From the sequence record PP886229: a stretch of DNA of 64,000 nucleotides, one strand, 5' to 3'. Position numbers and translations under genes: made by a program. Positions 1,856 through 64,000 of the stretch are shown here, piece by piece (the stretch's first letter is position 1; the number at the start of each line of letters is the position of its first letter). The notes beneath the pieces were generated by a model, which saw only the letters and a list, made by a program, of their open reading frames with translations, searched no databases and was not told the DNA's origin. The DNA comes from Escherichia phage vB_EcoM_E9.

Positions 1856-3208
1856 ATGTGGAATCCAATTGTTAATGTAGATATTACATTGAACACCGCA
1901 GGAACTACAAGAGAAGGTTTTGGGCTACCACTATTTTTAGCTTCAACAGATAACTTTGAAGAAAGAGTCCGTGGTTACACTTCCTTAACTGAAGTTGCTG
2001 AAGATTTCGATGAAAATTCTGCTGCATATAAGGCTGCTAAACAACTTTGGAGTCAGACTCCTAAAGTAACCCAGCTTTATATTGGTAGACGTGCTATGCA
2101 GTACACTGTATCAATTCCTGACTCTGTTACTGAAAGTACAGATTACTCTTTAACTGTAGCTGTGAGCGGTGGAATCTCTCAGCCATTCCAGTACACTTCA
2201 CAGGCATCAGATACCGCTGAGAAGGTGCTACAGCAGCTTAAAACACAGATTGAAGCAGAACCTTCTGTAAAAGACCTTGTTACTGTCAATGTAACTGGTG
2301 CTGGCGGTTCAGCAACAATGGTAATCACCAAAGCTGGCGACAATGACTTCGTGAAGGTTACTACTACAGCACAAACAGTGTCAATTGCAAGCACAACTGC
2401 TGACACAGCATCGACTGCTCTGGCAGCTATTGAAGCTTATTCAACTGACTGGTATTTCATTGCAGCAGAAGACAGAACTCAACAGTTTGTCTTAGCAATG
2501 GCTTCTGAGATTCAAGCTCGTAAGAAGATTTTCTTTACAGCTAACTCTGATGTAGCAGCACTGCAAGGTACAGAATTAGCCAGTGCAAATGACGTTCCAG
2601 CACAACTTGCTAAGAATAAGTACACTCGTACAGTTTGCTTGTGGCATCACACAGCAGCAGAAGATTATCCAGAAATGGCATACATCGCTTATGGTGCTCC
2701 ATATGATGCAGGTTCAATTGCTTGGGGTAACGCACAGTTAACTGGTGTAGCTGCTTCTCTACAGCCATCTAATCAGAGACCTCTGACAAGTATTCAGAAG
2801 TCAGCTTTAGATGCACGTCACTGTAACTTTATTGACCTTGATGGTGGTGTTCCAGTGGTTCGTAGAGGGATTACTTCTGGTGGGGAATGGATTGATATCA
2901 TCCGTGGTGTTGACTGGTTAGAATCAGACCTGAAAACTTCTCTGAGAGACTTGCTAATTAACCAGAAGGGTGGTAAGATTACTTATGATGATACTGGTAT
3001 TACCCGTATTCGTCAAGTCATTGAAACCTCTCTGCAAAGAGCAGTCAACAGAAACTTCCTGTCATCTTACACAGTTAATGTTCCTAAAGCCTCTCAAGTT
3101 GCTTTGGCAGACAAGAAAGCTCGCATCCTGAAAGATGTTACCTTCGCAGGTATCTTAGCAGGGGCTATCTTGGATGTTGACTTGAAAGGTACAGTGGCTT
3201 ACGAATAA
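1856..3208 (+). CDS. putative tail sheath protein
   Basis: 450 aa ORF followed by a 148 aa ORF, a strong terminator, a frameshift-capable chaperone pair and the tape measure gene (P2/Mu-like order sheath-tube-G/GT-TMP); assignment by synteny only. Confidence 0.5.
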   Translation: MWNPIVNVDITLNTAGTTREGFGLPLFLASTDNFEERVRGYTSLTEVAEDFDENSAAYKAAKQLWSQTPKVTQLYIGRRAMQYTVSIPDSVTESTDYSLTVAVSGGISQPFQYTSQASDTAEKVLQQLKTQIEAEPSVKDLVTVNVTGAGGSATMVITKAGDNDFVKVTTTAQTVSIASTTADTASTALAAIEAYSTDWYFIAAEDRTQQFVLAMASEIQARKKIFFTANSDVAALQGTELASANDVPAQLAKNKYTRTVCLWHHTAAEDYPEMAYIAYGAPYDAGSIAWGNAQLTGVAASLQPSNQRPLTSIQKSALDARHCNFIDLDGGVPVVRRGITSGGEWIDIIRGVDWLESDLKTSLRDLLINQKGGKITYDDTGITRIRQVIETSLQRAVNRNFLSSYTVNVPKASQVALADKKARILKDVTFAGILAGAILDVDLKGTVAYE

Positions 3209-13621: not shown

Positions 13622-16171
13622 ATGGCAGATTACAAATTGAGTCAATTAAACTCAATCGACACAATTCGTTCAGAAGACCTATTGCACATCAGAGTTAAGA
13701 AAAGACCTGAAATGTTGGGTGACGAAGACCGTAGAATGACCTATCAAGACTTCTTAGCTTCTTTCAAACTTGAAAGATTTGTTCAGATTGCTGGTAGTAC
13801 TATGACAGGTGACTTAGGTATTGTTAAGTTACTTTATGGTGGTAAGGCAGTATTTGACCCAACAGGCTCTTCTGAGGTTACTATTGGGGATGTTTTAAAG
13901 ACTTTTAAAATTAACGCAAATGGTCTTAAACTAGCTATTGCAGATGCTTCAAGGTCAGCAACTGTTTATCATACTCTGAATAAACCAAGTCCTAATGAGC
14001 TTGGGATGAGAACTAATGAAGAGAATGATGAAAGATATGCAAGGCTTGCTATCACAAATAACTTCAGCATTAGGCAAGCAATCGTAACTGATGGTGAGCA
14101 GTTAACTCTTAAGAAGGCAACCAATGCAGGTGCTTCATATATTCAAGGTAGAGATGCTAATAACCAGCAAACTTGGTATGTTGGACAGGGAAATGCAAAC
14201 AGCAATAATGTTTATTTGTACAATCATACTACTGGTGCAATGTTAACCCTTGATGCAACAGCAGCATTTAATAAGTCACTTAGAATTGCTGGTCAAGTTC
14301 AACCTTCGGATTTCTCTAACTTAGATGCCAGATACTTTACTCAGACAGTTGCTAATCAGAGATTTGCACAGTTAGCTGGTAATAACACTTTTACAGGTGC
14401 TAATACATTTAGGACTATGAGTATTATCTCAAATGCTGCTGCTATCACACTACAATGTGCATCAGCAAACGAATCCCTGTATCTACTTGCAAAAGATTAT
14501 CAAGGTGGTAACTTATGGTATGTTGGTAAAGGTAGCTCAGGTGATGGTGTAACTATCTACAACTATACCACTAACACCTCTTTGGTCTTAGATGCTGCTG
14601 GAGTATCAGCAAATAAAAATGTCAGAATCACTGGACAAGTTCAACCTTCAGATTGGGCTAACATTGACTCTAGATATATTCCGGCAGCAACATTAAGTAC
14701 AATTGCAAGAACTAATGCAAGGAATACTTTTAATGGTGTACAGACAGTTGTTACGGATAATGAAGGTCTGATTGTTAAAAACTCTACTCAGAATAGACCA
14801 TTATATATTCGTGGTGTGGACACTACTAATGTATCAAGATGGTGGATTGGTGTTGGTGGTGCTGATACGAATGATGTTACCCTAAATAACAGTTATTCTG
14901 GAACCCAATTGGTTCTCGGGAATACAACATCATACATTAACAAAACATTGACTATTGCTGGACAAGTTCAACCTTCAGATTTCTCTAACTTAGATGCTAG
15001 ATACTTTACGCAAAGTGCTAGTGATAGCAGATACCTAAGAATCAGAAGCACTAGCTTCAATGTGGGAAACACTGATAAGTGGGCTAAAATTGCCACTGTT
15101 GTTATGCCACAATCAGCATCCACTGCTGTTATTGAGGTATTTGGTGGGTCAGGTTTTAATATTAATACACCAAACCAAGCAGGTAAATGTGAAATTGTTC
15201 TGCGAACTTCAAATAACAACCCAAAGGGCTTAAATGTTGTTGCTTGGAGAACATCAGATAACACCATTGTCAGGGATATTGGTTATGTGAATACTTCTGG
15301 AGACACCTATGATATTTACTATCTTGCTGGTACGTATCAAAACGGCACAACGACAAGGGTTCAGTCTTCTAGTAATGCAAGTGTACAGTTGTTTGAAGTC
15401 CCACAGACATTTGATGATGCTCCACAAGGTATTGTGAAGGGTACAATTGCAAAATACTACACAAGTTTGCAAAAACCAACCCCTTCAGATATTGGTGCAT
15501 ACACTAAAGCAGAGACTGACCAGAAAATTGCAGATGCAATTAGTGACTCTACAGACCTGAATAAAATCTACCCAGTAGGTATTGTAACGTGGTTTAACAG
15601 CAATGTTAACCCTAATACAGCACTTCCTGGGTTAACTTGGACGTACCTGAACAATGGTGTGGGTAGAACTATTAGAATTGCAGCAGCAAATGGTTCAGAT
15701 GTTGCTACAACTGGTGGTTCAGACTCTGTAACGTTATCTGTTGGTAACTTACCTTCACACACGCATAGCTTCTCTGCTACCACTTCATCATTTGATTATG
15801 GTACTAAGACTTCTAGCACAACTGGTAACCATAACCACAACAGGGGGACTATGGAGATTACTGGTACAGTAGGTTACTTCAGAAGTGATTCTAGCAGCTT
15901 CTACACAGCAAGTGGTGCATTCACACTTGGTAGTTCAACTGCTTCTAAAGGTTTTACTGGTTCTAACTTCACTTATGGTATCCCTGCTAACTTCAATGCG
16001 TCAAGAACTTGGTCTGGTGTAACGAATACAACAGGTAACCACAGCCACACTGTTGGTATTGGTGCTCACAGCCACACAGTTAGCGGTAACACAGGTGGTA
16101 CTGGTTCTGGTTCAGCATTTAGTGTTACTAACCAGTTCTACAAGTTAATGGCTTGGGTAAGAACTGCTTAA
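13622..16171 (+). CDS. large tail fibre protein
   Basis: Start moved to ATG at 13622 (after hairpin, with RBS); internal triplicated segment (..IAGQVQPSDFSNLDARYFTQ.. x2, ..ITGQVQPSDWANIDSRYIP..); C-terminal H-x-H motifs and tail AFSVTNQFYKLMAWVRTA resembling the upstream fibre's AFSVEQPSFVVYVWQRTA. Confidence 0.65.
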   Translation: MADYKLSQLNSIDTIRSEDLLHIRVKKRPEMLGDEDRRMTYQDFLASFKLERFVQIAGSTMTGDLGIVKLLYGGKAVFDPTGSSEVTIGDVLKTFKINANGLKLAIADASRSATVYHTLNKPSPNELGMRTNEENDERYARLAITNNFSIRQAIVTDGEQLTLKKATNAGASYIQGRDANNQQTWYVGQGNANSNNVYLYNHTTGAMLTLDATAAFNKSLRIAGQVQPSDFSNLDARYFTQTVANQRFAQLAGNNTFTGANTFRTMSIISNAAAITLQCASANESLYLLAKDYQGGNLWYVGKGSSGDGVTIYNYTTNTSLVLDAAGVSANKNVRITGQVQPSDWANIDSRYIPAATLSTIARTNARNTFNGVQTVVTDNEGLIVKNSTQNRPLYIRGVDTTNVSRWWIGVGGADTNDVTLNNSYSGTQLVLGNTTSYINKTLTIAGQVQPSDFSNLDARYFTQSASDSRYLRIRSTSFNVGNTDKWAKIATVVMPQSASTAVIEVFGGSGFNINTPNQAGKCEIVLRTSNNNPKGLNVVAWRTSDNTIVRDIGYVNTSGDTYDIYYLAGTYQNGTTTRVQSSSNASVQLFEVPQTFDDAPQGIVKGTIAKYYTSLQKPTPSDIGAYTKAETDQKIADAISDSTDLNKIYPVGIVTWFNSNVNPNTALPGLTWTYLNNGVGRTIRIAAANGSDVATTGGSDSVTLSVGNLPSHTHSFSATTSSFDYGTKTSSTTGNHNHNRGTMEITGTVGYFRSDSSSFYTASGAFTLGSSTASKGFTGSNFTYGIPANFNASRTWSGVTNTTGNHSHTVGIGAHSHTVSGNTGGTGSGSAFSVTNQFYKLMAWVRTA

Positions 16172-57445: not shown

Positions 57446-57826
57446 ATGGCTTATCGTGCACCTAAATTCATCAACAAAGACAACTTTCGCAACGTACTGG
57501 AGAAGGCACTTGATGAAAAATTTAACGGTAAAATAATTGTTGTTCATGCGTTCAATTTCAAGTATGATATCAACGGGAATAAAATCAACCATTACACGGC
57601 AACCATGTTAGATGGTACGCTATCAAGTGAAAAAGCCGTACTGAATGCACTGGCAGGACGCGGAAAAGTATTAGTAAGATGCGATAAGAGACGTTATCAG
57701 GGTGGCGCATATGGTTACGATGATGCTGTTTACCATCTTGAAAATATGGGCTATTCAGTGGAAAAAGCTGGAGCGTCTCAAATAATTGGCAGTGACGGCT
57801 ATGTGACAATTTTCAAAATTAACTGA
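57446..57826 (+). CDS. early small protein E1
   Basis: Start at ATG 57446 behind the conserved RBS; 126 aa. Confidence 0.5.
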   Translation: MAYRAPKFINKDNFRNVLEKALDEKFNGKIIVVHAFNFKYDINGNKINHYTATMLDGTLSSEKAVLNALAGRGKVLVRCDKRRYQGGAYGYDDAVYHLENMGYSVEKAGASQIIGSDGYVTIFKIN

Positions 57827-57991
57827 TAAAGTACTTTACAAGGGGCTTATAGTTCGATAAAGTAAGCCCCAGATAAAGAGCTTTACCACTCAATCCTAAA
57901 TTATAAAGTACTTTACAAGGGGCTTATAGTTCGATAAAGTAAGCCCCAGATAAAGAGCTTTACCACTCAATCCTAAATTGGAGATTCTAAA
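57827..57991 (+). promoter_or_regulatory. type A intercistronic element, tandem duplicate
   Basis: Two consecutive copies of aaagtactttacaaGGGGCTTAtagttcgataaagTAAGCCCCagataaagagctttaccactcaatcctaaatt, the second ending in RBS plus ATG. Confidence 0.55.
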
Positions 57992-62660: not shown

Positions 62661-62909
62661 ATGGCTACTATCCGCGCAACTGTTAACGAATTCGGCTTTT
62701 GCTCTCTGGATGTTAAATTTGACCTTGTAGGTACTGATAACGCCTTTGAGATGGTGAAAGGTCTTATCAATCAGACCATAAAAGACTATAAACCTTCTGA
62801 TGAGTTCTGGGAGGAAACAAAACAGGAAGTTCTTACGCATGGTCACACTTATCACTATTGGGGAGAAAAAATCGTCTCCCTGTACTACGACAAAGAAGGC
62901 ACTAACTAA
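62661..62909 (+). CDS. early small protein E13
   Basis: 82 aa; last gene before a terminator and a long non-coding region. Confidence 0.5.
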   Translation: MATIRATVNEFGFCSLDVKFDLVGTDNAFEMVKGLINQTIKDYKPSDEFWEETKQEVLTHGHTYHYWGEKIVSLYYDKEGTN

Positions 62910-62947
62910 ACGCCGCAACGGGGCTAAATAGCCCCAGATACCTTTAC

Positions 62948-62972
62948 AGCCCCTTAAATGGGGCTTTTTTAC
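62948..62972 (+). terminator. rho-independent terminator closing the early gene array
   Basis: AGCCCC-ttaaat-GGGGCT followed by TTTTTT; preceded by hairpin GGGGCTaaatAGCCCC. Confidence 0.6.
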
Positions 62973-63009
62973 GTCTTATCAAAGCTCTATACAATCCCTT
63001 TCCTTCCCT

Positions 63010-63065
63010 TTCCAGAATCTATCCCACTAATTCGACAGAATCTATCCCACTAATTCGACAGAATC
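63010..63065. repeat. tandem direct repeat cagaatctatcccactaattcga (2.5 copies)
   Basis: Two perfect 25 nt units plus a partial third. Confidence 0.6.
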
Positions 63066-63359
63066 TATCTCGTACCTTAAAAGCAATAACTCTATAGCTT
63101 ACTCTATAGCCCCTTATCAAATCAACTTAAATAAAAGCCAATAACCCCCAGAAAGGGGATGGCCCATTTAAACGCTCTATAAAGCTCTATAACAGCCTTA
63201 TCAACCTAACTTAAGGGATTGCATTAACCCACTCTAAAAAGCCCTTTATAAAGCTTCCTATAGCCTCAAAAGAATCTTATAAGGGTGTAAGCTTTATCAT
63301 CTCGTTAGCTATCTTGTGAATAACTCAATAACCCTTGATAGTCTCTAAAAAGTATGTTA

Positions 63360-64000
63360 TAGGGGCTGTTAAGTTACTTTGAAGTTACGTAAAAGAGGCT
63401 ACAAAGTTACGTAAATGCTAGCCCCCTTAACATTCTCTTAACAATTTCTTAACAATCCCTACATAGTTATGCTTGTTAGAGACTTGTTAGCCCCTTGTTA
63501 AATCTCTGTTAAGACCACGTAAAAGCCTTGTAAGAGTCTTTAGCATAGCCTTTAAAGCCTCTGTAAAGCCCTATAAAGAGGTGTCTACATAGTTGGGGTG
63601 TAATTACTAGGAAGAGACTTAAAAGAGCTTACAAAGAGCTATAGAGAACTTTTAAGAGGTATGTTTAGAGAATCACTAAGAAAGAGAGGGAACTATAGAC
63701 CAAGAGATAGTGACCATGTTAATAGCTTGTTAAAAAGATTAAACACTTGTTAGGAATTTGTTAATTATCTTAACAAAATAACTCTTAAAAATTAACTTGT
63801 TAGCTCTTATTAGTCATCTGTTAAGACTCTGTAAAACCTATGTATCAACTGTTAAGAAACTGTTACACCCTTGTTAGCTCTGTTAAGAATCTGTTAAGAC
63901 CTCTGAAGAGATGTTAAGAGGTTGTAAGAACTGTTAAGAGATTGTTAAGGATATTTTAAAATTTTGCAAAGGGGATGTTACAGGGATGTTAAGGGCTACC
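63360..64000. repeat. array of YTGTTARG motifs, helically phased at the 3' end
   Basis: At least 15 copies of (c/t)tgtta(a/g)g(a); from about 63849 to 63945 ten copies recur every 9-11 bp; no ORF of 60 aa or more; array runs to the window edge. Confidence 0.6.

Follow-up and report, generated by a model that had tools for sequence, protein, structure and literature searches.

The right arm of Escherichia phage vB_EcoM_E9 (record PP886229) carries, in the 64,000-nt stretch that was analyzed (hereafter the window), a perfect tandem repeat of a 23-nt unit at positions 63013-63069, present in 2.5 copies. With a probability of roughly 0.8, we consider this repeat to be a recent, strain-specific duplication of the 23-bp unit by slippage or unequal recombination, with a copy number that has no function. 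The anatomy of the repeat, its position in the genome and a series of alleles in relatives that differ by steps of 23 nt can be read directly from the aligned genomes, and from these we infer both the mechanism and the neutrality of the event. Because most relatives lack it, we regard the repeat as a length polymorphism of an ordinary kind rather than a conserved signal. Judged from sequence comparison, its copy number is most likely without function and the duplication probably neutral; at best, the repeat could help to mark strains of this phage lineage.

Genomic position of the repeat and the right end of the genome

To place the window, its last 1.4 kb were compared with phage records. A total of 253 records matched with 85-90% identity, none of them identical, and almost all belong to Felixounavirus (Felix O1-like myoviruses of Escherichia, Salmonella, Shigella and Citrobacter). 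The window is the right arm of a Felixounavirus genome, that is, of a Felix O1-like myovirus. Of note, positions 135034-136463 of GU169904.1, a 147-kb record named "Staphylococcus phage SA1", are also Felix O1-like (88% identity to the end region of the window), and this record is probably a chimeric or mixed assembly.

From left to right, the region contains the last gene, its terminator, a pyrimidine tract, the repeat, conserved non-coding blocks, a minus-strand hairpin and a direct terminal repeat (DTR). The last right-arm gene is an ORF on the plus strand (62661-62909), followed on the same strand by a Rho-independent terminator consisting of a hairpin and a T-run (62948-62972). This terminator is annotated in phage Barry and is the homologue of terminator t23 of Felix O1, listed in Table 2 of the corresponding study (PMC3185647). 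The earlier note on this DNA, made from the letters only, had placed the repeat immediately 3' of a terminator and apart from the YTGTTARG array; both statements hold, the array starting at 63366. The pyrimidine tract on the plus strand (TCCCTTTCCT, 1.9 copies, 62995-63013; Tandem Repeats Finder and alignments) adjoins the repeat, and its length differs among relatives, for example CCCTTCCCTTTCCTTTCCTTTCC in genome L028, which fits a local slippage hot spot. On the other side, a terminator-like hairpin is found on the minus strand at 63144-63160, with a 6-bp stem and a weak T tail, identified as a consensus match only. The plus-strand terminator and this hairpin bracket the repeat, in a gap that is probably untranscribed. 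In the circularly collapsed records of Barry, allfine and Felix O1, the repeat locus lies within a gene-free stretch of about 1.65 kb, with plus-strand genes ending at its left and minus-strand genes running toward it and ending at its right.

The conservation of this region was profiled on an 11-genome alignment of 62895-64000 with BLAST-based anchoring. Among about seven indel hot spots, the bins covering 63020-63069 had the highest gap fraction (0.56-0.68). The blocks at 63070-63144 and 63170-63244, for their part, were 0.90-0.98 conserved across the 11 genomes, above the end of the adjacent gene. The repeat is thus located in variable filler, beside elements that look constrained. The two conserved blocks contain repeated CTCTATAR motifs and flank the minus-strand hairpin at 63144-63160; they may correspond to a small RNA or to a packaging or replication signal.

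The window ends with ...GGGATGTTAAGGGCTACC, the homologous position at which three independent GenBank records end. The agreement is base for base with the ends of CRP22 and NBEco004, while MET-P1-301 ends at the equivalent point with a different sequence over its last ~20 nt. These three records carry exact or near-exact terminal duplications (CRP22, 579 nt; NBEco004, 628 nt; MET-P1-301, 544 nt), with an inner border common to CRP22 and NBEco004 and a copy that starts slightly inside it in MET-P1-301. In addition, the annotated 581-nt terminal repeat of Pr103Blw (the first 581 nt of that record) aligns to window positions 63421-64000; this "short direct terminal repeat" of 581 bp was found with PhageTerm (PMC8303462). 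By homology, base 64000 thus corresponds to the physical right end of the genome and 63421-64000 to the right copy of the DTR, of about 580 bp. This assignment draws on homology and on the coinciding ends; the left DTR copy lies outside the window. One positional by-product of the analysis is the identification of the end of the window as the true right terminus of a Felix O1-like genome, and another is the precise placement of its ~580-bp DTR.

The literature on phage UAB_Phi87 could appear to conflict with this placement. Its DTR was mapped to 608 bp by Bal31 digestion and run-off sequencing (PMC4837284), and the same study gave 87,669 bp as the genome size and 4322 and 2819 bp as the sizes of the Bal31-sensitive SpeI fragments. 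The record of this phage (JN225449) starts and stops inside the tRNA cluster, with an exact overlap of 542 nt. When the ends were set at the DTR borders (record positions about 15152-15765), the end fragments from in-silico SpeI digestion measured 4431 and 2751 bp, each differing by about 100 bp or less from its published counterpart, and the virion genome came to 87,675 bp. With the ends of the record itself, the SpeI end fragments are 1134 and 16,247 bp, and the published sizes are not reproduced. The UAB_Phi87 record is not opened at the physical ends, and the 542 nt are an assembly overlap. Since the digest with ends at the DTR borders fits the published fragments, the apparent conflict is resolved in silico, a further by-product of this work.

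Between the terminator of the last gene and the DTR border, the DNA is unique and non-coding, and the repeat is located within this spacer, 351 nt away from the DTR and 931 nt away from the DNA end. The repeat was rejected as a part of the DTR because the DTR starts at 63421 and the repeat ends at 63069. Short perfect tandem repeats of this kind had been described in the earlier note as typical of protein-binding sites or of sequences at genome ends. The second suggestion is right as to location only, the window ending at the right terminus: the repeat is no part of the DTR, has no duplicate at the other end and lacks conservation.

Several other observations were made around the DTR. Its ends carry an inverted motif (63424-63443 versus 63976-63995; 20 nt, 80% complementary), reading CCCTTAACAT...TAACA at the left border and TGTTA...ATGTTAAGGG at the right border. 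The motif YTGTTARG has 34 occurrences in the window where 14.6 are expected, 12 of the 34 lying within 63366-63949, and the first three copies inside the DTR are oriented opposite to the rest. The inverted motif at the DTR ends and the YTGTTARG copies are candidates for recognition sites of the end-forming machinery. To the right of the DTR, a gene-free stretch of ~600 nt is found in Barry (L002, 4378-4990) and also in genomes L008, L010, L015 and L017; in the virion, it lies just inside the left DTR copy. When aligned, its first ~300 nt (AAGCAGATATACATCC...) are very strongly conserved among relatives, and the stretch also contains more YTGTTAG arrays. The conserved blocks and the YTGTTARG arrays, which are better candidates for packaging or replication signals, are now set apart from the variable filler that holds the repeat.

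Anatomy of the repeat and copy-number alleles in relatives

Tandem Repeats Finder reported the repeat at 63013-63069 with a period of 23, 2.5 copies and 100% matches, and its score of 114 is the second-highest in the window. A separate repeat search gave the same result: two identical 23-nt copies followed by the 11-nt head of a third. The unit is CAGAATCTATCCCACTAATTCGA. On the plus strand, copy 1 occupies 63013-63035, the identical copy 2 occupies 63036-63058, and the partial third copy, found by the repeat search and in the alignments, is the head CAGAATCTATC at 63059-63069. This 11-nt head is therefore present three times, with starts at 63013, 63036 and 63059, and forms a direct repeat that brackets the 23-nt unit; the breakpoints fall on it. 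The chance of 34 matches at offset 23, with a probability of ~0.27 per position, was estimated at ~5e-20, and the expected number of such repeats over 64,000 starts and 500 periods is ~1e-12. The tandem repeat is therefore a true duplication and not a chance occurrence. A perfect tandem direct repeat of 25 nt had previously been noted at 63010-63065, with two exact copies and a partial third. The repeat is present with this very arrangement of copies, and the unit sequence quoted at the time is the correct 23-mer; the length of the unit had to be revised to 23 nt and the span to 63013-63069.

We then compared the alleles of the locus in a 10-genome alignment. The relatives form an in-register allelic series with exact steps of 23 nt, comprising 0.5, 1.5 and 2.5 copies. 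The 0.5-copy allele contains only a YAGAATCT(A)TC core and is the state of most relatives with a readable allele. In Felix O1, Barry and allfine, YAGAATCT is followed by TATCAGACC, and UAB_Phi87 also carries the core only. The 1.5-copy allele, CAGAATCTATC-CCACTAATTCGA-YAGAATCTATC, is found in KEP1, DE17, CRP22, BPS15Q2 and fBSPA4. Copy 2 of the window corresponds to the single full unit of these five relatives, whereas copy 1 is the extra copy, or the twin of the extra copy, and has no counterpart in any relative. The 2.5-copy allele is carried by the window only, in flanks identical to those of KEP1. A further variant was observed in NBEco004 (L005, ~3025-3055), where a 28-nt insert with an internal palindrome (TAGTGATTCAGGTAATGAATTACCTTCA) is present inside the 23-nt unit of a 1.5-copy form.

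This distribution was also seen in larger collections. With the 57-nt repeat as the query, 38 Felixounavirus GenBank records (of ~250) were matched over 25-37 nt each, corresponding to at most 1.5 copies. Among 60 records sampled at even spacing from the 250 that match the 176-nt locus, about 13 had the 1.5-copy length, about 30 the single-core length and none the full length. Of 15 IMG/VR contigs with a readable locus, 14 carry a single core and one a degenerate 1.5-copy form. The junction between two full copies was absent from IMG/VR and JGI metagenomes, and no other genome with at least two full copies was found in the phage collection, IMG/VR or JGI metagenomes. The core YAGAATCT itself is kept in almost all relatives, one IMG/VR contig having CAGAACCT. 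Comparison of copy number across related genomes had been proposed in the earlier note, which took copy number varying freely, with no functional consequence, as evidence against a role. Viable isolates exist with every allele (0.5, 1.5 and 2.5 copies), which comes close to such free variation.

Slippage or unequal recombination could account for these alleles as follows. In a KEP1-like ancestor with 1.5 copies, the 11-bp direct repeats CAGAATCTATC, located 23 bp apart, would already have bracketed the unit. One unit would then have been gained, through either slipped-strand mispairing in the course of replication or unequal recombination within a concatemer, with CAGAATCTATC as the likely substrate for slippage or recombination. 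The event would be recent, because the copies are identical, and their 100% identity together with flanks matching KEP1 means that a single event without later substitutions suffices. Loss through the same direct repeats could generate single-core alleles of the ...TCTATCYCRTACC type.

Two single-core alleles, ending in ...TCTTAYYAGACC and ...TCTATCYCRTACC, and two 1.5-copy alleles with the same two tails are found, and they differ pairwise by exactly the 23-nt unit. The presence of the same two tails in both classes indicates that the unit was gained or lost more than once or was moved by recombination. About 10 nt of the 1.5-copy unit (CTAATTCGA) have no counterpart in the single-core alleles. 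If the single core were ancestral, the step from 0.5 to 1.5 copies would therefore not be a simple duplication. The alternatives are an ancestral 1.5-copy state or a first gain other than by simple duplication, and the difference between 0.5 and 1.5 copies would be explained more simply by loss of the unit, through deletion between the repeats.

Alternative explanations

The location of the repeat raises the possibility that the unit, or its YAGAATCT core, is a candidate binding site for a terminase or packaging factor, or for a replication initiator, in the DTR-proximal spacer, so that the duplication adds sites, as iterons or the repeats of pac sites do. The short distances to the inner DTR border (351 nt) and to the DNA end (931 nt) favor this reading, as does the 23-nt period, which nearly equals two helical turns. 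Nearly all relatives also have the core, and the non-coding blocks beside it are highly conserved, making a functional element at or next to the site possible. However, Felix O1 and most readable relatives have one core and no 23-nt unit, and the tandem arrangement is thus not required for any role of the core. The 2.5 copies are found in one genome only, and additional indels make the spacing between the repeat and the DTR border variable. Nor did the unit recur within the window: the 11-mer CAGAATCTATC, with one mismatch allowed, and the 12-mer CCACTAATTCGA were found nowhere else in the 64 kb beyond chance. A dispersed motif family was rejected on the same ground, both motifs occurring only at the repeat locus within the window.

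A partner at the other DTR border was also considered. In Barry, an inverted CAGAATCT is located ~90 nt right of the DTR. In an alignment of this side from which three misplaced genomes were left out, eight other genomes read AAATTCTG or AAATCTG at this position. The symmetric partner was therefore rejected as a coincidence, and the binding-site reading has no conserved counterpart beside the other border. The unconserved repeat argues against a terminase-recognition (pac-like) role; no small terminase has been identified in Felixounavirus (PMC4837284). Overall, we consider a binding site at the unit or its core unlikely. The protein-binding role put forward in the earlier note finds no support here: the tandem form is private, most relatives are without the unit and the motif occurs nowhere else in the window.

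The extra copy could also be an assembly or sequencing artefact. The same window contains a private, perfect tandem duplication of 77 nt (x 2.0) at 57826-57979, and a period of 77 nt is a default SPAdes k-mer, which suggests that the record is not fully curated. However, the 57-nt repeat is shorter than any current read, making collapse or expansion in assembly unlikely, and assemblers do not usually work with a k-mer of 23, the period of the repeat. Relatives have, moreover, the 1.5-copy repeat at exactly the place of the expansion, as true slippage predicts. An artefact is therefore quite improbable. Concerning the 77-nt duplication itself, a 241-nt query spanned 162-164 nt, that is, one copy, in the 15 best-matching relatives listed. 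This duplication may stem from the overlap of a circular contig that was not trimmed before the assembly was rotated, or it may be a second real duplication.

It is very doubtful that the YAGAATCT-centred unit is a recognition site of a packaging or replication factor acting on the spacer next to the right DTR copy, on its inner side, at which natural differences in copy number tune how efficiently concatemers are processed, with the locus changing rapidly under selection instead of drifting.

Other candidates at the level of RNA or protein were also rejected. The repeat showed no structure when its folding was compared with that of shuffled sequence (z -0.36 as DNA and -0.32 as RNA), and an Rfam search gave no match above noise, the only one being suhB (E = 0.57) over the neighboring hairpin. 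With a noise-level suhB match and a folding z of about -0.3, an RNA element was discarded. Two ORFs cross the repeat, at 62958-63053 on the plus strand and 63019-63120 on the minus strand. They encode only 31-33 aa and were rejected as genes, since the 23-nt indels of relatives would shift their frames. Finally, the repeat might be the 5' leader of a transcript with a regulatory role at the RNA level, made from the weak promoter-like site TTTACG-16-TACAAT (62968-62995; 9/12 matches), which overlaps the terminator tail and has a -10 element, TATACAAY, conserved in 9 of 10 genomes of the 10-genome alignment, but this is exceedingly improbable with promoter-like sites at chance level (5 found versus 3.3 expected), a promoter spacer of 15 to 18 nt among relatives, neither RNA structure nor Rfam family, and most relatives without the unit.

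Comparison with known systems

The repeat was set against four known types of sequence. Iterons are exemplified by the origin of phage lambda, where four 19-bp sites are bound by the O protein. The window repeat resembles them by a unit of about 20 bp and by tandem, helically phased copies. However, the number and sequence of iterons are conserved within a family, and they are located beside an initiator gene and an AT-rich unwinding region. The copy number of the window repeat is a private polymorphism with no linked initiator. Where iterons have three or more phased copies conserved across the family, this repeat reaches 2.5 copies at most, in one genome, and the allele seen most often is without the unit.

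A second comparison concerns the short repeat arrays SRL and SRR, which, according to Dunn and Studier (1983), reportedly flank the terminal repetition of phage T7. As in T7, short direct repeats are found here in non-coding DNA next to a short DTR, and the phage is likewise virulent and packages its DNA from concatemers. In T7, arrays of about a dozen copies directly adjoin the terminal repeat on each side, and they are also conserved in relatives such as T3. In contrast, the window repeat is found near one border only, at a distance of 351 nt, does not exceed 2.5 copies and does not occur in most relatives; there is no contact with the border, no partner at the other border and no conservation.

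The Felixounavirus DTR itself was the third comparison. The repeat is located in the same non-coding region, with the DTR being the last 580 nt of the window. Unlike the DTR, it ends at 63069, outside the segment duplicated at both virion ends, which starts at 63421, and it has no sequence in common with the YTGTTARG motifs.

The closest resemblance is to polymorphisms of the slipped-strand or VNTR type, for which slippage models are said to have been proposed by Streisinger and by Levinson and Gutman. Pierce, Kong and Masker (1991) reportedly described deletion between short direct repeats in phage T7, and both deletion and duplication between such repeats are well established in T7 and in bacteria. 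The window repeat differs from the VNTR type in that it ranges only from 0.5 to 2.5 copies, with no long array, and in that the step from 0.5 to 1.5 copies includes ~10 nt of unexplained origin unless read as a deletion. It agrees with this type in its head-to-tail identical copies, in the 11-nt direct repeat that brackets the unit and on which the breakpoints of whole-unit steps fall, in the unit-step variation among close relatives, and in a non-coding site where the unit is under no coding or structural constraint.
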